Positions 3,943 through 23,501 of a DNA stretch of 32,000 nt are shown piece by piece. Each line of letters begins with the position of its first letter. Positions within the stretch are counted from its first letter, which is position 1. Below the pieces are notes generated by a model. The model was not told the origin of the DNA. It did no database searches and saw nothing but the letters and a program-made list of their open reading frames with translations. The DNA is from Candidatus Saccharimonadota bacterium (GTDB lineage: Bacteria; Pseudomonadota; Gammaproteobacteria; Enterobacterales; Enterobacteriaceae), in the NCBI GenBank assembly GCA_049942775.1, contig CP188087.1:90001-122000 (forward strand). The letters are read 5' to 3'. Made by a program: the position numbers and the translations under genes.

Positions 3943-5021
3943 AAAAAAAAAAAATAAAAAAAATTTTATTTATCGATAGAGATGGAACTTTAATAAAAGA
4001 ACCTAAAATTAATTTTCAAGTTGATAACTTAGAAAAGATTAAATTTGAAAAAGAAGTATTTATATCTTTAATACAATTAAAAAACTATGGATATAGTTTT
4101 ATTATGATTACTAATCAAGATGGATTAGGAACGGAAAAATTTCCATTGTCTTGTTTTAATAAGGTTCAGAAATTTATAATAGATACGTTTGCATCTCAAA
4201 AAATTTTTTTTAAAAAAATTTTTATTTGTCCACATGAAGAACAAGAAAATTGTTTGTGTAGAAAACCAAAAATAGGGTTGGTTAGAGATTTGTTGAAAAA
4301 AAATTATCTGTCTAAAAATAGTTGTTACGTTATTGGTGATAGGAATACAGATATAGAATTTGCAAAAAATATTGGAATAACTGGTTTATTGTATCATTCT
4401 AAAAAAAATAATTGGTCTAAGATATCTAAAAAACTTATTTTATCTAAGGATAGATATGGTAAGTTTGTTAGAAAAACTAATGAATCATCAGTTTTGGTTG
4501 AAATATGGTTAGATCGAATTGGAAAAAGTAATATAAATACTGGAATTCCATTTTTTGATCATATGTTAGATCAAATTGCTGTTCATGGAGCATTCAAAAT
4601 GAATATTTTTACTAACGGAGATGTACATGTAGATGATCATCATACTGTAGAAGATACTGCTATAACTTTTGGAAATGCTTTTTTAAAATCTTTGAGCAAA
4701 AAGGTTGGAATTGGTAGATTCGGATTTACTTTACCAATGGATGAAAGTATAAGCACTTGTATATTAGATTTGTCGGGACGACCATATTTGTGTTATGAGT
4801 CAGTTTTTAAATATCAAAAAATAGGTGATTTAAGTACAGATATGATTAAACATTTTTTTAGTTCAGTTTCTTATTCTATGATGTGTACAATTCATTTAAA
4901 AGCTAAAGGAGAAAATGATCATCATATTGCTGAAAGTATATTCAAATCTTTTGGAATGGCTTTAAAGCAGGCAAAACAGATTACTGATAATTACTTACCT
5001 AGTTCAAAAGGAACTTTATAA
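3939..5021 (+). CDS. hisB: Bifunctional histidinol-phosphatase / imidazoleglycerol-phosphate dehydratase
   Basis: 360 aa. The N-terminal HAD phosphatase has the motif FIDRDGTLI. The C-terminal IGPD has FFDHMLDQIA, DDHHTVED and GENDHHIAES. ATGA overlaps the hisC stop. The N-terminus MKKKKIKK is encoded by a 13-nt A run. Confidence 0.95.
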   Translation: MKKKKIKKILFIDRDGTLIKEPKINFQVDNLEKIKFEKEVFISLIQLKNYGYSFIMITNQDGLGTEKFPLSCFNKVQKFIIDTFASQKIFFKKIFICPHEEQENCLCRKPKIGLVRDLLKKNYLSKNSCYVIGDRNTDIEFAKNIGITGLLYHSKKNNWSKISKKLILSKDRYGKFVRKTNESSVLVEIWLDRIGKSNINTGIPFFDHMLDQIAVHGAFKMNIFTNGDVHVDDHHTVEDTAITFGNAFLKSLSKKVGIGRFGFTLPMDESISTCILDLSGRPYLCYESVFKYQKIGDLSTDMIKHFFSSVSYSMMCTIHLKAKGENDHHIAESIFKSFGMALKQAKQITDNYLPSSKGTL

Positions 5022-10251: not shown

Positions 10252-11895
10252 ATGTTGAAAGTTAAAAAAAAAATCTTAGTAACTTGTGCTTTTCCATATG
10301 CAAATGGTTCTATTCATTTAGGTCATTTATTAGAACAGATTCAAGCAGATATTTGGGTTCGTTTTCAAAGAATGCAAGGAAATATAGTATGGTTCATTTG
10401 TTCAGACGATAGTCATGGTACGGCTATTATGTTGCAGTCTAAAAAGAAAAAAATAATTCCAGAAAAATTTGTGTCTTTAATATTAAAAGAACATAAAAAA
10501 GATTTTTCTTGTTTTGATATTTCACATGATTATTATTCTTCTACACATACTAAAGAAAATTATTATTTTGTAAAGAAAATTTTTTTTTCTCTTATGAAAA
10601 AAGGGTTTATAAAAAAGAGACATATTTTACAAATGTATGATTTACAAGAAAACATTTTTTTACCTGACAGATTGATATTAGGGAGTTGTCCAGTTTGTTC
10701 TTCTTCTAATCAGTTTGGAGATAATTGTGAAGTATGTAGTTCTATTTATGAAGCACACGAATTGATTAATCCTATTTCTTGTTTATCTAAAAGCAAACCT
10801 GTTTTACGTCGTTCGAAACATTTGTTTTTTGATTTACCTGCTTTTAAAGATATGTTAATTAATTGGATTAATTCTGGAGTATTATCTAATTCTGTGTTAA
10901 ATAAAACTAAAGAATGGTTTGCTACTGGATTAAAAGAATGGAATATCTCAAGAGATTGTCCTTATTTTGGATTTAAAATTCCTAATTTTCCAAAGAAATA
11001 TTTTTATGTTTGGTTTGATGCACCTATAGGTTATATAAGTTGTTTTAAAAAATTTTGTAAAAAAAAAATAAATATTTCTTTTACAGAATACTGGAATAGC
11101 AACGATAGTCACTTATATCATTTTATTGGAAAAGATATAATTTATTTTCATAGTTTATTTTGGCCAGCAATACTAGAAGGTAGTGGTTTTAGAAAACCTA
11201 CAAAAATTTTTGTTCATGGTTACGTAACTATTAAAGGTCAAAAAATTTCTAAATCTAAAGGTTCAGCAATATTAGCAAAAGATTGGATCAAATATTTTGA
11301 TTCAGATAGTATTCGTTATTTTTATGCTTCTAAATTATCATCTAAAATTGAAGATATTGAAGTTGATTTAATAGAAATAATACAGAAAGTAAATTCTGAC
11401 TTAGTAAATAAAGTAGTTAATTTAGCGACTAGAACTGGTAAAATAATAAGTTCTTATTTTTCTAATATTTTATCCGATTCTATTGATAATAGCATATACA
11501 ATAAAGTAATTGATACTAGTAAAGATTTTCTAAATCTAATTCTTAATAGAGAATATAAGAAAGCAATTATTTTAGTTATTTCTTTAGCTAATTTAGGAAA
11601 TAAATATGTTAATTTAAAACAACCTTGGAATATAGTTAAATTGTATAATTCTAATGATTTTAATATAAAAGAAGCTCAATTGGTTTGTACAACAGGAATA
11701 AATATTTTTCGTGTTTTAATGATTTATTTAAAACCTATTACAACTGTATTGGCTAAAACAACAGAACGTTTTTTAAACACAACATTATCTTGGGAAAATA
11801 TAAATGTTCCTTTATTAAATCACAAAATTTCTTATTTTTCTCCAATTTATTCAAAATTAGATGAAAATATGGTTCATTTATTATTAAAAAAATAA
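10252..11895 (+). CDS. metG: Methionyl-tRNA synthetase (short form lacking the C-terminal tRNA-binding/dimerisation domain)
   Basis: 547 aa. It has the HIGH-type motif PYANGSIHLGH, the zinc knuckle CPVCSS...CEVCSS, and the KMSKS-type motif KISKSKG. An AGGAG Shine-Dalgarno sits at 10238..10242. Confidence 0.95.
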   Translation: MLKVKKKILVTCAFPYANGSIHLGHLLEQIQADIWVRFQRMQGNIVWFICSDDSHGTAIMLQSKKKKIIPEKFVSLILKEHKKDFSCFDISHDYYSSTHTKENYYFVKKIFFSLMKKGFIKKRHILQMYDLQENIFLPDRLILGSCPVCSSSNQFGDNCEVCSSIYEAHELINPISCLSKSKPVLRRSKHLFFDLPAFKDMLINWINSGVLSNSVLNKTKEWFATGLKEWNISRDCPYFGFKIPNFPKKYFYVWFDAPIGYISCFKKFCKKKINISFTEYWNSNDSHLYHFIGKDIIYFHSLFWPAILEGSGFRKPTKIFVHGYVTIKGQKISKSKGSAILAKDWIKYFDSDSIRYFYASKLSSKIEDIEVDLIEIIQKVNSDLVNKVVNLATRTGKIISSYFSNILSDSIDNSIYNKVIDTSKDFLNLILNREYKKAIILVISLANLGNKYVNLKQPWNIVKLYNSNDFNIKEAQLVCTTGINIFRVLMIYLKPITTVLAKTTERFLNTTLSWENINVPLLNHKISYFSPIYSKLDENMVHLLLKK

Positions 11896-15057: not shown

Positions 15058-17328
15058 TTGATATTTTTGTTTTTTAAAATAAAAACTTTAAAATTTGGAT
15101 ATCAGTTGGTTATACTACGTGTTGTTTTTCCTATTTTTTCGGAGAAAAAATTTGAATATTTGTTTTTAAAAAATAAAAATATAGACTATTCTATAATAGG
15201 ATCTCGTGTTTTAGTTCCATTTAAAAAATTAAAATTAATAGGTATTGTTGTTTCTTTTTATTTTTCAAATAAAAAAAATATATATATTAAATTGAAAAGA
15301 ATTTGTGTTGTAATTGATAAAAGTTCTATTTATACAATTAATTTGTTAAATTTTTTGAATTGGATTTCAAAATATTATTTGAAACCTTTCGGATATACTT
15401 TATTCTATTTTTTACCAAAATTATTTAAGAAAGATAAATTTTTACAAACTGATTTATTTTTTCATTGGAAAATAACAAAAAAAGGGAAAAAAAGTAATTT
15501 AAATATATTTTCCTATAATAAGGAATATTTTCAAGTTTTAGAATTATTAAAAAAAAAAAATATTTTTCCATATGAACTAATTAAATTAAAAATTTCTTCT
15601 TCTATTTTAAAAAAAATAAAAAATGATGGATTATGTAGTTTTTCTTTAGTTTCTAAAAAAGATTCTATTTGGTTAAATTTAATTAAATTTAAGTCTTTGA
15701 TAAAAAAAATTAAAAATAAAGATTTTATTTTTGATGTTTTTGGGAAATATGAAAAAAAATTTTCTATTTATTTACTAATTGAACTTAGAATAGTTTTTTT
15801 ACAAAATATTTTTTTTAAAAATTTATTTAATTTAGTATTAAACAAGGGTTCGCAAATATTAATTTTAGTTCCTAGCAAAGTTGATTTACGTGCTTATTTT
15901 TCTTTCGTTCAATCTAATTTTAACGTTCCTGTTGATTATATACATTCAAATACTTCTAATAAAAGACATGCTTTAGTTTGGAACAAAATAAATAATTCAG
16001 AGATTGCTATCTTAGTAGGAACATCTAGATCTTTGTTTATGCCTTTTTCTTCTCTCGGTTTAATTTTAGTCGTTGAAGAACATGATCTGTCTTATAAAAA
16101 ATCAGGTGTAATATCTTTTAATGTAAGAAATTTAGCTATTCTTCGAGCTAAAATTGAAAATGTTTCCATAATTCTTCAATCAAATACTCCTTCTTTAGAC
16201 AGTTTGTATAATTTAAATATTGGTAAATATAAAAAATTAAAAATTAATTCATTTTATAAAAATAAAAAAAATAACATAATAAAGACAAGTATAATAAATG
16301 CAAACAAAGGTAGCTTTTATGAAATATTTTCTTATGAATTGATAGAATATTTAAAATATTCCTTAAATAAAAATAATTCGATAATTTTAATTTTTAATAA
16401 ATTAATAGTATTTTTTTTAAAATTAACATGTATAAAATGTAAATGGGAAGCAAGATGTTTAGTTTGTTTTTGTCTTTATAATTTTAATCCTAAAAATAAT
16501 CTTTTATTTTGTAGAAATTGTCTATTTAGTATTTCTAAGCCGGTTGTATGTTTGAATTGTGGTTCAAATTTTTTAAAAACAAAAAAATATAGTTTTAATG
16601 ATTGTATAAAATTAGTAAAAAAAATTTTTTTTAACTATAATCAAAAATATTTTTTTGATTTTTTAGATAAAAGTTTTTGTTTTGAATTAAAAAAATTAGA
16701 TTTTAATTATAGTTATAATTATATTTATATATATAAAAATAAAGAAAATTCTTCTATTTTTACTAATTCATACAAAAAAATCATTATTTTTTTATCCATA
16801 GACCACATTTTTCATGTCTATAGTTATCGTGTTTTTGAATATTTTTCTCAATTTTATTTTCAAATAATTAATTTATTTTTAAACAGTGTTAAAATAATTG
16901 AAATTTTTTTTCAAACTACTTTTATTAATGAAAGATATTTTGTAAATTTAATGAAAAATGATACTTATTTTGATTTTTCTAAGTATTTATTTCTTTTCTG
17001 TAAAAAAAAGAAACTACCTCCTTTCAGAAATCATGCAATAATAAGTGTTGTTAATAAAGATTTATATTATTGTATTGATTTTTTTTCTTTTTTAAAAACT
17101 GTTATTTTAGATCTATGTATAATCAGTTCAGAATGTTTATGGATTTACGGTCCAATATTTAATTTTAAAAGTTTTGTTTTTAAATTTAATTCTCATATTC
17201 TTATGATACAAACTTCTTCTAGATATAGTACACATAGATTTTTAAGAAAATTAGTTCGTATTATTAAAAAAAATAGATATTTTGAAAAAATTAATTGGAA
17301 AATAGACTTAGACCCTGTTGATTTTTAA
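15058..17328 (+). CDS. priA: Primosomal protein N' (PriA) homologue, highly diverged with eroded ATPase motifs
   Basis: The 756-codon frame is colinear with E. coli PriA. Matches include the N-terminus (RVLVPF...IGIVVS), LVPS, AILVGTSRSLFMPF, VVEEHD (the DEEH box), the four CxxC pairs (CIKC..CLVC..CRNC..CLNC), KLPPF, GPI and the C-terminus WKIDLDPVDF. The start is uncertain: TTG at 15058, or the in-frame TTG at 15106, which aligns better with the E. coli N-terminus. Confidence 0.8.
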   Translation: MIFLFFKIKTLKFGYQLVILRVVFPIFSEKKFEYLFLKNKNIDYSIIGSRVLVPFKKLKLIGIVVSFYFSNKKNIYIKLKRICVVIDKSSIYTINLLNFLNWISKYYLKPFGYTLFYFLPKLFKKDKFLQTDLFFHWKITKKGKKSNLNIFSYNKEYFQVLELLKKKNIFPYELIKLKISSSILKKIKNDGLCSFSLVSKKDSIWLNLIKFKSLIKKIKNKDFIFDVFGKYEKKFSIYLLIELRIVFLQNIFFKNLFNLVLNKGSQILILVPSKVDLRAYFSFVQSNFNVPVDYIHSNTSNKRHALVWNKINNSEIAILVGTSRSLFMPFSSLGLILVVEEHDLSYKKSGVISFNVRNLAILRAKIENVSIILQSNTPSLDSLYNLNIGKYKKLKINSFYKNKKNNIIKTSIINANKGSFYEIFSYELIEYLKYSLNKNNSIILIFNKLIVFFLKLTCIKCKWEARCLVCFCLYNFNPKNNLLFCRNCLFSISKPVVCLNCGSNFLKTKKYSFNDCIKLVKKIFFNYNQKYFFDFLDKSFCFELKKLDFNYSYNYIYIYKNKENSSIFTNSYKKIIIFLSIDHIFHVYSYRVFEYFSQFYFQIINLFLNSVKIIEIFFQTTFINERYFVNLMKNDTYFDFSKYLFLFCKKKKLPPFRNHAIISVVNKDLYYCIDFFSFLKTVILDLCIISSECLWIYGPIFNFKSFVFKFNSHILMIQTSSRYSTHRFLRKLVRIIKKNRYFEKINWKIDLDPVDF

Positions 17329-18811: not shown

Positions 18812-19186
18812 TTATTTTATATTAAAACTTTTCCCACAACCACAAAAGTTTTCTATTTTTGGATGTTCAAATTTAAATATTTTATTAATTCCATCCTGTA
18901 CATAATCTATTTTCAATCCATGAATCATTTGTATATTTTCTATAGGTATAGAAATAACAAAATTTGAATAATTAAAAGTTAAATCTTGTTTTTTTTTTCT
19001 AAATATTGTTTTTAAGTAATATTTAAATCCAGCACAACCAGATTTTTTAATATTAATTCTAACCCCCATACTTTTTTTTTTAGAAATTAGTTTATTAATT
19101 TGTTGTTCAGCATTTTTAGTAATTTTTATATTATTATTATTTTCATTTGAATTTATTAAAAATAATGTATTATTTTTATTTTTCAT
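18812..19186 (-). CDS. sufA: A-type iron-sulfur cluster carrier (HesB/IscA/SufA family; closest to SufA by my recollection)
   Basis: 124 aa. It has the three conserved cysteines, in SGCAGFKY and the C-terminal CGCGKSF. The tail INKIFKFEHPKIENFCGCGKSF resembles E. coli SufA [22 protein letters not shown] more than IscA or ErpA. The family call is firm; the paralogue assignment is less so. Confidence 0.8.
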   Translation of the reverse strand: MKNKNNTLFLINSNENNNNIKITKNAEQQINKLISKKKSMGVRINIKKSGCAGFKYYLKTIFRKKKQDLTFNYSNFVISIPIENIQMIHGLKIDYVQDGINKIFKFEHPKIENFCGCGKSFNIK

Positions 19187-20239
19187 AAAATTTTATAAAA
19201 ATGTTATTAGTTTTTAAAGTTAATTAATCATCATTAGATGATAATATCATATCATTTTTTTATTTAAATTTTTACTTTTTTTAAATATTTTTTAGATTAT
19301 ATAATAAATTTATTTTTTATTGTTTTTTTTAGTCATTTCTTAGTTTAAAAAAGTTTAGCAATATACAAAAATTATTTAATGATAAAAATTTTCAATAAAC
19401 ATTATAAGATTACATTGTTTAAATTATGACAAAATTTTCAATATTAATTTTATTAGTTTTTTTGAGTTTTATTATTCGTGATTTTAACTAATTTATAAAA
19501 ATTAAAGATTTAACTTTTAATTTTTAATTTTGATGTTGTTTTGTTTAATTTTATTTTTTAATTTAGAAAAAAATCTTTTTAATTAATCATTTATATTTTG
19601 ATATATAAAATATTTAAAAAAATTTTTTAAAAATTATGTTTTGATTTTTAAAAATTTGTTTTATTAAAAATAGATTTATTTTTCTACTAAATTTTATATC
19701 ATTTGTATTAAATACTTTAGAAACATTAAGATAATTAAATATTAATTTATTTTTTATATTTGATTTATAAGGTTTTGTTTAGTATTTTGTTATCAATAAA
19801 AAAAGAATATTATTCTAATGCAGTTATTTTTTTAATAAGTTAAATTAGTAAATAAAATTTTTTTAAATTAATTTATTTTTTAAAGTTAAAGTAAACATAG
19901 TTTTTACTATTTTTAAAAAAAATATTTATAGAAGATAAAAAAATATATTTTTTTATTATTTTAAAAAATTTGTTTTTTAAAATCTATAAAGATTATTTGT
20001 AAACAAACCTTTATTTAGCATTATTTTTAAAGTAGCTTTAATTTTTTAATATTGTTTTAAACTATAACATTATAAATTAATTATTATTACGAAATATCTT
20101 TATAAGTACATAAAAATTCATATGAATGTGGTGGTTTTAGAAAGGTTTTTTAAAAATATTTAACTAAAAATGATTTATTAAAAATTGTTTAAAAAAAAAT
20201 AAAAAAATTAGATGAAAAATATAAATTATAGAGAGCAAT

Positions 20240-21289
20240 ATGAAAAAAACAGATGAATTGCGTACAGTCAGAATAGATCCATTGATTACTCCATTAGAAT
20301 TGGCAAGAAAATATCCAATTACTCCAGAAATTATGGACAATGTAATTTTAGCTAGGAATAATATAGCAAAGATTATTACAGGTGAAGATAAACGATTGCT
20401 AGTAGTTATTGGTCCTTGTTCAGTACACGATCCTATAGCAGCTATGGAATATGCTCATAATTTAAATAATTTAAGAAATAAATATAAGGATCGTTTAGAG
20501 ATTATCATGAGAACTTATTTTGAAAAACCTAGAACTGTCGTCGGTTGGAAAGGATTAATTGCTGATCCAGATTTAAATGGTAGTTTTAGAGTTAATCACG
20601 GTTTATCGGTTGCTAGAAAACTATTATTAGATATCAATGCTATAGGAATGCCAGCTGCAACGGAATTTTTAGATATGGTAATAGGTCAGTTTATAGCTGA
20701 TTTAATTAGTTGGGGTGCAATAGGTGCAAGAACTACTGAAAGTCAAATTCATAGAGAAATGGCTTCAGCATTATCTTGTCCAGTTGGATTTAAAAATGGT
20801 ACTGATGGTAACATTAATATTGCTATTGATGCTATTAGGGCAATTAAAGAAAGACATTTATTTTTAGCTCCAAATAAAAATGGACAAATGACTATTAATC
20901 ATACTAGTGGAAATCCTTATAGTCATATAATTATGAGGGGAGGAAAAAAACCCAATTATCATTTTTCTGATATTTCATGTGCTATTAAAAAACTAAAGGA
21001 ATTTTCTTTAAATGAATATTTAATGGTCGATTTTAGTCATGGAAATTCTTTGAAACAACATAAATTACAAAAGAAGGTTTCTTCTTCTATATCCAAACAA
21101 ATAAAAAATGGTAATAGTAGTATTGCTGGAGTAATGATTGAAAGTTTCTTAGTAGAAGGTACACAAATAGTTACTGGAAACAAAAAACAGTTGGTTTATG
21201 GAAAATCTATTACCGATTCTTGTTTAAATTGGTTAGATAGTGAAATTATTTTAGAAGAATTATCTTGTGCAATAGATGCTCGTTTTTAG
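20240..21289 (+). CDS. aroH: 3-deoxy-7-phosphoheptulonate (DAHP) synthase, AroH type
   Basis: 349 aa, very close to E. coli AroH: TDELRT.RI, KRLLVVIGPCSVHD, MRTYFEKPRTVVGWKGLI.DPDLNGS, IADLISWGAIGARTTESQIHREMASALSCPVGFKNGTDGN, and the C-terminus DARF. Confidence 0.95.
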   Translation: MKKTDELRTVRIDPLITPLELARKYPITPEIMDNVILARNNIAKIITGEDKRLLVVIGPCSVHDPIAAMEYAHNLNNLRNKYKDRLEIIMRTYFEKPRTVVGWKGLIADPDLNGSFRVNHGLSVARKLLLDINAIGMPAATEFLDMVIGQFIADLISWGAIGARTTESQIHREMASALSCPVGFKNGTDGNINIAIDAIRAIKERHLFLAPNKNGQMTINHTSGNPYSHIIMRGGKKPNYHFSDISCAIKKLKEFSLNEYLMVDFSHGNSLKQHKLQKKVSSSISKQIKNGNSSIAGVMIESFLVEGTQIVTGNKKQLVYGKSITDSCLNWLDSEIILEELSCAIDARF

Positions 21290-21701
21290 TTTTTTGCAGA
21301 ATTATTATTTTCTAGATAGTACAAGTTAAATTTATTTAAATTTAATTTGTATATTATAAGTTAAAATTTTAAAAAATTTAAATAATTTGTTTTTTATTTT
21401 TATATAAAGTATATATATTAAAAATATAATTTGTTTTTTTTGTTTTGTGTCTTTTATTGTATATTTTTTTTATTTACAGTATTGTATGTAAAAACCAATA
21501 ATGTTCTATCTGAAATTAAGATATAAAAATTATTTTTTTTTTGATATTATTTATCAAATAAAAATAATTTTTATTATTTAAATAATATTTTGTGAAAAAT
21601 AATCAAAAATTTATTTTTGATTTTTTTATAAAAAAACAAATTTTATAAAGTTATATAATTTTCAAATAAAATATAGAAATTATTCTTTCTAAATAATATT
21701 A

Positions 21702-22958
21702 ATGGGAATAATGTTGAAACAAAAAAATAAAAATATAATTTTGGATCGAAACAGAGATCATCGAATTATTGGAAAAAAGTTAAATTTTTATCATATCAAT
21801 GATAATTCTCCAGGAATGGTTTTTTGGCATTCGGATGGATTGATCATTTTTAGATTACTAAAAGATTTTATTAGAAAAAAATTATTAGAACATAACTATA
21901 GAGAAGTACAAACACCAATACTATTGGATGAAATAATTTGGAAAAAAAGCGGTCATTGGGAAAATTATAAAAATTCAATATTTACAACTGCTTCAGAAAA
22001 TAGGAAATATTGTATTAAACCAATGAATTGTCCTGGTCATGTAGAAATATTTAATCAAGGTTTAAAATCTTATAAAGATCTTCCTTTTAGAATTTCTGAG
22101 TTTGGTAGTTGTCATAGAAAAGAACCATCGGGTTCCATGCATGGTTTAATGAGAGTTCGGTATTTTACTCAAGATGATGCTCATATATTTTGTAGTGAAG
22201 AACAAGTTCAAAATGAAATAGAAACTTGTATTATGATGATTTTTGATATTTATAAGATATTTGGATTTAAAGAAATTTATTTAAAATTATCAACTAGACC
22301 AATAAATAGAATTGGTTCAAATGAAAATTGGGATCGTGCTGAACTAGACTTATTACAAGTATTAGAGAGGAATAACTTAAAATTTGAATATCAATCTGGT
22401 GAAGGAGCTTTTTATGGTCCTAAAATTGAATTAATTTTAAAAGATTCTTTAAATCGAATGTGGCAATGTGGAACTATTCAGTTAGATTTTTATTTATCCA
22501 GTAAATTAAATTCTTTTTATATAAATAAAAAAAATCAAAAAAAAAATCCAATTATTATTCATCGAGCAATTTTAGGTTCAATTGAACGTTTTATTGGTAT
22601 TTTAATTGAAGAATATTCAGGATATTTACCTACTTGGTTATCTCCATTACAAATTGTTGTTATTAGTGTCAATCCAATTCATTCGAATTATGTGGAAAAG
22701 TTAAAAAATAAAATATTTAATTTAGGAATTCGTGTAAAATCAGATGTTAGAAACGTAAAAATAAATATAAAAATTAGAAATTACACGATTTCTCGAATAC
22801 CATATATTTTTATATGTGGTGATAAAGAAATAAAAACATCTAAGGTAACTGTAAGGACTAGATTAGGTAAAAATTTTGATCTTGTAGATTTTAATAGTAT
22901 TATTAAGAAAATACAATTTGAGATATTTACTTATAGTAATCATTGTTTGGAGGAATAA
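21702..22958 (+). CDS. thrS: Threonyl-tRNA synthetase, N-terminally truncated (catalytic and anticodon-binding domains only)
   Basis: 418 aa. It starts at ...DRNRDHRIIGKKLNFYH, which aligns with E. coli ThrRS residues of about 225 onward (...AKRDHRKIGKQLDLYH). It is colinear from there to the shared C-terminus ...LEE. Class II motifs and putative Zn ligands are retained (KPMNCPGH, FTQDDAHIF, IIHRAILGS). An in-frame TAA lies 4 codons upstream of the ATG. Confidence 0.9.
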   Translation: MGIMLKQKNKNIILDRNRDHRIIGKKLNFYHINDNSPGMVFWHSDGLIIFRLLKDFIRKKLLEHNYREVQTPILLDEIIWKKSGHWENYKNSIFTTASENRKYCIKPMNCPGHVEIFNQGLKSYKDLPFRISEFGSCHRKEPSGSMHGLMRVRYFTQDDAHIFCSEEQVQNEIETCIMMIFDIYKIFGFKEIYLKLSTRPINRIGSNENWDRAELDLLQVLERNNLKFEYQSGEGAFYGPKIELILKDSLNRMWQCGTIQLDFYLSSKLNSFYINKKNQKKNPIIIHRAILGSIERFIGILIEEYSGYLPTWLSPLQIVVISVNPIHSNYVEKLKNKIFNLGIRVKSDVRNVKINIKIRNYTISRIPYIFICGDKEIKTSKVTVRTRLGKNFDLVDFNSIIKKIQFEIFTYSNHCLEE

Positions 22959-22961
22959 AGA

Positions 22962-23501
22962 ATTAAAGTCGGACGAAGAATTCATACAATACATCCTAAT
23001 CGTATTAATACAGAAATTAAATCAGTAGAAGTAAGATTAACTGGATTAAAAGGCGAACAATTTGGAATTGTTACTTTAAAGAAAGCTTTAAATATAGCTA
23101 TGGAACAAGATTTAGATTTGGTAGAAATTAGTCCAAACGCAAAACCTCCTGTTTGTCGTATTATGGACTATGGTAAGTTTCTTTATGAAAAAAGCAAACA
23201 TTTTAAGGAACAAAAGAAAAAACAAAAAATTATTCATGTTAAAGAAGTTAAATTTAGACCTGGAACAGAGAAAAGTGATTATCAAGTAAAATTAAGAAAT
23301 TTAGTTCGATTTCTAAATGATGGTAATAAAGTTAAAATAACTTTAAGATTTCGTGGTAGAGAAATGGCTCATCAAGGAATAGGTATGAATATTTTATATA
23401 GAATAAAACAAGATTTAAGTACTATTTCCATAGTTGAAAGTTTTCCTGTTAAAATTGAAGGAAGACAAATGATAATGATTTTATCTCCTAAGAAAAGATA
23501 G
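22962..23501 (+). CDS. infC: Translation initiation factor IF-3, with an ATT start codon
   Basis: The ORF track only calls 23100..23501 (133 aa). The frame is open back to an ATT at 22962, which is 3 nt after the thrS TAA. The extension [42 protein letters not shown] aligns with the E. coli IF3 N-terminus (...[33 protein letters not shown]). GGAGG at 22949..22953 lies 8 nt upstream. E. coli infC also uses AUU. Confidence 0.9.

Follow-up and report, generated by a model that had tools for sequence, protein, structure and literature searches.

The window analysed here, a 32,000-nt stretch of contig CP188087.1 (positions 90,001 to 122,000), carries on its forward strand, at 21702..22958, a gene for a threonyl-tRNA synthetase (ThrRS) that is truncated at its N-terminus. 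We are confident that the gene is functional, that it is the thrS of a Buchnera aphidicola from Tetraneura aphids, and that the N-terminal module of the enzyme has been lost in its entirety, namely the N1 (TGS) and N2 domains with about 225 residues (hereafter the N-module). Because the truncated gene occurs in three lineages, evolves with a ratio of nonsynonymous to synonymous substitution rates (dN/dS) of 0.12-0.17 and has kept its catalytic and zinc-binding residues, it appears to be a functional gene and not an artefact or a pseudogene.

Extent and domain content of the truncated thrS

A first-pass annotation, made from the letters of the window, had described a thrS frame of 418 codons, and the maximal open reading frame (ORF) at 21702..22958 does encode 418 residues from an ATG start. 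The frame is closed upstream, as that annotation also noted, by an in-frame TAA at 21690..21692, four codons 5' of the ATG at 21702 (read from the sequence). Since this first ATG reads ACG in a relative (locus L081), the conserved start is likely the second ATG, at 21711, which would give a protein of 415 residues.

Pfam searches, which the annotation had proposed as a check, found two domains in the 418-residue product. The class II catalytic core, with its zinc ligands intact, corresponds to tRNA-synt_2b (PF00587; residues 94-305, E 4e-54; 21981..22616, forward strand), and the anticodon-binding domain to HGTP_anticodon (PF03129; residues 317-405, E 7.5e-16; 22650..22916, forward strand). 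Neither TGS (N1) nor tRNA_SAD (N2) was matched in this product, even at E ≤ 1. The TIGR00418 (thrS) model scored 519.9 bits, above its curated cutoff of 383.65, with the alignment covering only profile positions 168-564 of 565.

In a structure-database alignment, residues 17-418 of the window enzyme correspond to residues 241-642 of E. coli ThrRS (1qf6_A), and residues 18-418 to positions 1-401 of the truncated E. coli enzyme whose crystal structure is known (1evk_A, E 1.5e-180). Because the first alignment begins at query residue 17, equivalent to E. coli residue 241, Met1 falls at about E. coli residue 225, which bears out the starting point given in the annotation. Residues 1-17 (21702..21752, forward strand; E. 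coli ~225-241) are what is left of the linker helix between N2 and the catalytic domain, as placed by the 1qf6_A alignment and by comparison of the junction with Eriosoma Buchnera proteins. All eight catalytic and zinc positions that we checked (C334, H385, H511, R363, E365, Y462, Q484 and R520 in E. coli numbering) match an E. coli-type reference (P0058); the equivalent of C334 is Cys110, encoded at 22029..22031. The window enzyme combines a minimalist architecture, made of catalytic and anticodon-binding domains only, with an intact ORF and purifying selection. Conservation and purifying selection suggest that it aminoacylates tRNA-Thr and, lacking N2, it is predicted to be incapable of post-transfer editing of the N2 type.

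The same truncation in Tetraneura-type lineages

The truncated gene is common to three lineages: the window, Buchnera aphidicola of Tetraneura akinire (CP188088, locus L001), whose thrS product is 97% identical to the window enzyme, and L081, whose product is 87% identical. The window itself most likely stems from the sister genome, that of the Buchnera of T. sorini, which was described alongside CP188088 in 2025 (PMC12243488). Independent Logan short-read assemblies also contain the truncated enzyme (P0001, 418 residues; P0002, 415 residues and 87% identical). L001, L081 and three Buchnera loci with full-length thrS (L085-L087) share the gene order aroH-thrS-infC with the window. Among the three truncated lineages the thrS ORF has stayed intact across a dS of up to ~0.4, and its dN/dS of 0.12-0.17 can be set beside values of 0.06-0.33 for neighbouring genes.

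The upstream spacer and the search for the missing N-module

Between aroH and thrS lies a non-coding spacer of 412 bp (21290..21701, forward strand) with a GC content of 9.95% and stop codons in all six frames; GC per kb across the window is 11-30%. The annotation had stated that the spacer holds no ORF of 60 residues or more, and the longest that we found has 31 (21431..21526). It had further judged the spacer too short to encode about 225 residues, and about 310 bp of the missing N-terminal coding sequence cannot be accommodated there. Its claim that no recognisable ThrRS N-terminal sequence is present also held. A tblastn search with seven ThrRS N-modules (from Buchnera, E. coli-type and other symbiont enzymes) returned nothing beyond chance in the spacer or the rest of the window, and a profile hidden Markov model (HMM) of ten Buchnera N-modules, run over the whole window translated in six frames, had no match at E ≤ 10. 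Positive controls were recovered by both methods, at E 1e-129 for tblastn (the frameshift-split thrS of locus L084, see below) and at E 1e-109 and 2e-69 for the profile HMM. TGS or editing-domain homology hidden in 21290..21701, for example behind a frameshift, had been named in the annotation as the observation that would speak against a truncation; we looked for it and found none in any frame.

In Buchnera with full-length thrS (L085-L087) the aroH-thrS spacer is 151-255 bp long. The 412-bp spacer of the window is probably this ancestral spacer together with a fully decayed and shortened remnant of the ~720 bp N-terminal coding sequence. A comparison of the spacer with Eriosoma thrS and its leader at the DNA level, made in search of a deletion breakpoint, gave low-complexity AT matches only and was uninformative.

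We looked for another thrS copy, or for an N-module encoded on its own, in the 32-kb window and in 9 kb of CP188088, and a pattern scan, non-exhaustive for that genome, returned one CP188088 thrS locus. We also searched a collection of 5.8 billion proteins with the ten-sequence N-module alignment. This gave 44 short N-module proteins, fragments or partial sequences from unrelated bacteria, none of them Buchnera-like and the closest 39% identical to the Eriosoma module, under an incomplete candidate filter. The same search returned no full-length Buchnera ThrRS either, and so it is a weak negative at best.

Loss of the editing site in full-length Buchnera ThrRS

We read the editing site from an alignment of the 120 best homologues of the window enzyme, at C182 and at H73, H77 and H186, the N2 editing-site residues reported by Dock-Bregeon et al. 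(2000). C182 and the surrounding His residues form the ThrRS editing site (PMC10057733). In every full-length Buchnera ThrRS among these homologues (591-652 residues) the H73/H77/C182/H186 set has been replaced, most of them reading Y/Q/D/Q. Eriosoma Buchnera, whose enzymes are the closest full-length relatives (642-643 residues, 63-69% core identity), read N, then Y or H, then D and Q at these positions. H/H/C/H is kept in free-living Enterobacterales and in recently acquired symbionts.

Most Buchnera ThrRS also no longer match the Pfam TGS model, and between full-length Buchnera pairs omega (dN/dS) is 0.56-0.59 for the N-module and 0.21-0.25 for the core, values that are approximate because dS is near saturation. 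The N-module of full-length Buchnera ThrRS thus appears to be under relaxed constraint.

Since the editing residues have been replaced throughout the full-length Buchnera ThrRS examined, editing was most likely lost before the truncation. Post-transfer editing had most likely, indeed almost certainly, disappeared by the time of the Buchnera ancestor, and what the Tetraneura lineage removed was most likely a module already without editing function. The annotation had described an editing-deficient enzyme, which agrees with the absence of N2, but its attribution of this deficiency to the truncation is not supported, as the editing residues are already replaced in full-length Buchnera ThrRS.

A conserved block in the leader and the thrS operator

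A 45-nt block of the spacer (21450..21494, forward strand) is identical to the window at 45/45 positions in L001 and at 43/45 in L081, compared with 66% identity over the remaining spacer. It is overlapped by a promoter-like TTTACA-18-AATAAT at 21473..21502, and carries TATTGTAT twice together with an imperfect palindrome, TTTACA..TGTAAA. Among the loci compared, the TATTGTAT motif pair is confined to those of the Tetraneura type. No sign of RNA structure was seen in the block, whose fold energy is no better than that of shuffled sequence, and a scan of the window with Rfam matched a tRNA-Val only. From its conservation and its promoter-like motif, the block is probably the promoter of the truncated thrS, with transcription starting there. 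UUGUA resembles the anticodon loop of tRNA-Thr(UGU), and we also considered that the block might act as a cis-regulatory RNA to which the truncated enzyme binds through its anticodon-binding domain. This would be ThrRS autoregulation without the N-terminal domain, by a mechanism unlike the ribosome competition of E. coli. We give this idea very little credence, and a plain promoter is far more likely.

To look for an E. coli-type operator we scanned for anticodon-arm-like hairpins with a 7-nt loop containing xGU and an adjoining ribosome-binding site. The scan recovered the domain-2 hairpin of the E. coli thrS operator at -42..-22. In the leaders of the window, L001 and L081 it found nothing conserved or near a ribosome-binding site, the only matches being two non-homologous AT-palindromes more than 290 nt upstream, and the leaders of full-length Buchnera thrS (L085-L087) gave no match at all. 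On the evidence of these leaders, E. coli-style regulation of thrS most likely disappeared in the Buchnera ancestor, before the truncation. The annotation had called the enzyme unregulated; an E. coli-type operator hairpin was indeed not found, but since the full-length Buchnera leaders examined gave none either, the truncation is unlikely to be the cause.

Parallel and intermediate states in other symbionts

The annotation had proposed comparing thrS length across Buchnera and other symbionts. This comparison supported the truncation as real but not as unique to Tetraneura Buchnera, since ThrRS without the N-module (N-less below) was found in two other symbiont lineages. A search of 1.84 billion cluster representatives contained many ThrRS of ~400-430 residues. 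Candidatus Providencia siddallii has an annotated N-less ThrRS of 410 residues (CAL1329463.1). The spacer upstream of its thrS (L088 2960..4000, OZ034688.1) is 1041 bp long, 8% GC and ORF-free, and retains a faint collinear relic of the N-module that covers residues 30-125 (E 0.002), then 167-205, then 210-227. An enterobacterial symbiont of 25% GC (P0099, locus L082, Logan SRR27234917) has an N-less ThrRS of 430 residues. Its thrS spacer (4840..6000 of L082; 1161 bp, 12% GC) is likewise ORF-free, and tblastn found no trace of the N-module in it.

The context thrS-infC-rpmI-rplT-pheST is common to the window, Ca. Providencia siddallii and L082. All three N-less enzymes start at the equivalent of E. 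coli residues ~214-233, at the end of N2 or in the linker helix. The Providencia and P0099 cores are ~60% identical to the window enzyme and 65% identical to each other, and the nearest full-length relatives differ for each of the three truncated lineages. By these sequence comparisons, N-less ThrRS has arisen independently in Ca. Providencia siddallii and in the P0099 symbiont.

Pemphigus Buchnera (P0080, P0085) have a ThrRS of 593 residues without the first ~50 residues (N1/TGS) but with a degenerate N2, which suggests that erosion of the N-terminus has gone part of the way there.

One further candidate for a natural truncation (P0057, locus L084 from JGI metagenome 3300048044) was rejected, as the gene is split by a frameshift and an intact TGS and tRNA_SAD ORF lies directly upstream. 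At 4372..6290 of L084 this 225-residue ORF overlaps a 429-residue core ORF, which begins at the conserved 'MLQRIYG' methionine. The split is either a sequencing error or a first step of the same truncation process.

Comparison with known minimal and split ThrRS

The annotation had likened the window enzyme to the laboratory deltaN enzyme of E. coli, and the two are essentially coextensive, as the 1evk_A alignment shows. DeltaN-ThrRS (residues 242-642; PDB 1EVK, 1EVL, 1FYF, 1KOG) has the same domains with nearly the same boundary, and its zinc ligands and class II motifs are identical in the window enzyme. Unlike deltaN-ThrRS, an engineered fragment of an editing-competent enzyme, the window ThrRS is natural, apparently the sole thrS at its locus and under purifying selection, and it keeps ~14-17 extra linker residues. 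E. coli ThrRS without the editing domain is a dimer and is fully active in amino acid activation (PMC4267643).

A natural minimalist enzyme made of the core and the tRNA-binding domain is already known in the yeast mitochondrial ThrRS, MST1, which has no editing domain at all and produces Ser-tRNA-Thr in vitro (PMC4267643). MST1 (PDB 3UGQ) matches the window enzyme at E 3.6e-77. Unlike the window enzyme it is an organellar protein encoded in the nucleus, and it co-evolved with an unusual tRNA-Thr1. Pre-transfer editing has been demonstrated for MST1.

Crenarchaeal ThrRS-cat is also a catalytic-only ThrRS polypeptide, but in Crenarchaea editing is kept on a separate protein, ThrRS-ed (PDB 3A31), with an archaeal DTD-like fold; free-standing ThrRS editing proteins in Archaea are attributed to Korencic 2004 as that work is cited in PMC4267643. 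In contrast to the ThrRS-cat/ThrRS-ed pair, no partner was found in the 32-kb window, none of the 44 short N-module proteins was Buchnera-like, and the ancestral module appears to have been inactive.

Among bacteria, editing domains of aminoacyl-tRNA synthetases (aaRS) are described as degenerate or missing in host-restricted species (Melnikov 2018, as cited in PMC7373986 and PMC10057733). The window enzyme resembles the Mycoplasma cases (Li 2011) and those of the Melnikov 2018 survey, in which genome erosion removes proofreading. In E. coli the editing defect of ThrRS C182A is compatible with nearly normal growth (PMC10057733). Close parallels are the enzymes of Ca. Providencia siddallii and P0099, which are likewise N-less, in AT-rich endosymbionts, in the same gene context and behind an ORF-free AT-rich spacer; they differ in belonging to other bacterial lineages and in having longer spacers (1041 and 1161 bp).

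Neighbouring genes and other features of the window

Upstream of the spacer lies aroH (20240..21289, forward strand; Trp-sensitive DAHP synthase, NCBIfam NF009396, 592.6 bits), the conserved upstream neighbour of Buchnera thrS. Downstream the window retains the order thrS-infC-rpmI-rplT-pheST. The infC gene (22962..23501, forward strand) has an ATT start codon 3 nt beyond the end of thrS, and its translation gives a full-length IF3 of 179 residues; it also starts with ATT in L085 and L087. An ORF list based on ATG starts shows only the C-terminal 133 residues of infC, from 23100.

Between a sufA/iscA-like gene (18812..19186, reverse strand) and aroH there is an ORF-free stretch of 1,053 bp with ~11% GC (19187..20239). 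In Eriosoma and A. pisum Buchnera (L085-L087) an AI-2E transporter family gene occupies this position. Because tblastn found no remnant of the transporter in 19187..20239, a second gene at this locus appears to have decayed completely.

The metG product (10252..11895, 547 residues) matches positions 3-541 of the 676-position MetRS model, a coverage that indicates a MetRS without the C-terminal tRNA-binding and dimerisation domain and makes it the second core-only aaRS in the window. A priA homologue (15058..17328) scores 333.8 bits against a curated cutoff of 858 and, with a score so far below the cutoff, would encode a highly divergent primosomal protein N'.

Discussion

The course of events that we favour would begin in the Buchnera ancestor with the loss of the editing residues; no E. 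coli-type operator is detectable in the Buchnera leaders examined, and the N-module would have drifted under relaxed constraint. Inactivation or deletion of the N-terminal coding region would have followed in the Tetraneura lineage, with re-initiation at a Met codon of the linker region, and the upstream remnant would have decayed to a spacer of ~10% GC and shrunk. The enzyme that resulted would form the usual class II dimer and charge tRNA-Thr with threonine. Valine would still be excluded via the zinc site, Ser-tRNA-Thr would not be hydrolysed, and Thr-to-Ser mistranslation, if any, would be tolerated, as presumably in all Buchnera.

Several points weigh against this account. The E. coli deltaN enzyme reportedly charges tRNA less efficiently (PMC4267643), and a cost, or some compensation for it, would therefore be expected. 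The function of the window enzyme is read from sequence comparison, and its start could be either of two ATG codons three codons apart. The search for another thrS copy or a separate N-module extended over the window and the 9 kb of CP188088. The order in which editing died and the gene was truncated is deduced from sister lineages and was not observed directly.

The span of this genome search leaves some room for a split enzyme, in which an N-module or another Ser-tRNA-Thr deacylase is supplied from elsewhere in the symbiont, by a co-symbiont or by the host, and the archaeal editing proteins offer a precedent in the pairing of ThrRS-cat with ThrRS-ed. We consider such editing in trans very unlikely. 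No N-module signal was found in the 32-kb window, and the absence of a Buchnera-like sequence among the 44 short N-module proteins points the same way, if weakly given the incomplete filter. Since the N-modules of sister Buchnera are editing-dead, the ancestor would have had no working module to move elsewhere, which makes a relocated editing domain with activity improbable. Still less likely is that the 418-codon ORF is a decaying pseudogene and that something else charges tRNA-Thr. The genome is eroding (530 kb versus ~630 kb, with 29-32 pseudogenes reported; PMC12243488), and the adjacent AI-2E transporter gene has vanished. Yet the ORF has remained intact in three lineages under an omega well below one, all catalytic residues that were checked are kept, and the TIGR00418 score exceeds its curated cutoff; moreover, symbiont genomes larger than ~200 kb mostly keep enough aaRS genes for all of their tRNAs (PMC11020763).

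An assembly or sequencing artefact, with a frameshift or collapse hiding a full-length thrS, deserves mention because the published assemblies for Tetraneura Buchnera were built on Nanopore reads, with polishing afterwards, in a 2025 announcement that does not mention thrS (PMC12243488), and because a true frameshift-split thrS is known in L084. We rejected a frameshift because the spacer is too short and without homology in any frame and because the same structure recurs in the independent Logan assemblies P0001 and P0002, including at 87% identity; an artefact of any kind is extremely improbable. The truncation might instead have been adaptive rather than the outcome of neutral erosion, with removal of the N-module selected for cheaper synthesis or for a beneficial Thr-to-Ser ambiguity. 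The nearly identical boundary in three symbiont lineages could be taken in this sense, and there are proposals that mistranslation is adaptive in host-restricted bacteria (PMC7373986, PMC10057733). However, relaxed selection with deletion bias predicts recurrence equally well, and the shared boundary can be explained by the domain structure and the available internal Met codons. Because editing was inactive before the truncation, fidelity would have been unchanged at that step. We regard adaptive truncation as unlikely and retain neutral erosion of an inactive module as the explanation of the N-less thrS.

Neither the loss of editing nor the missing regulation appears to be special to the Tetraneura lineage. 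The truncation is an expected end-stage of genome erosion and falls within the published pattern of aaRS proofreading loss in host-restricted bacteria and of minimalist ThrRS. It opens no new question, and its interest is modest, as a clean and recurrent natural deltaN series. The states form an ordered series, from an intact module through loss of the active site and loss of N1 (Pemphigus Buchnera) to loss of the whole module, and the outcome is repeatable, as Ca. Providencia siddallii and a third symbiont have reached it too. Along this series, proofreading can be told apart from the other role of the N-module, assistance in binding the acceptor stem of the tRNA, and both roles would be dispensable in an endosymbiont. 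The Tetraneura Buchnera lineage in this sense repeats the deltaN-ThrRS experiment naturally and in vivo: a bacterium has apparently long been sustained, across at least three diverged host lineages, by a ThrRS of catalytic and anticodon-binding domains alone.

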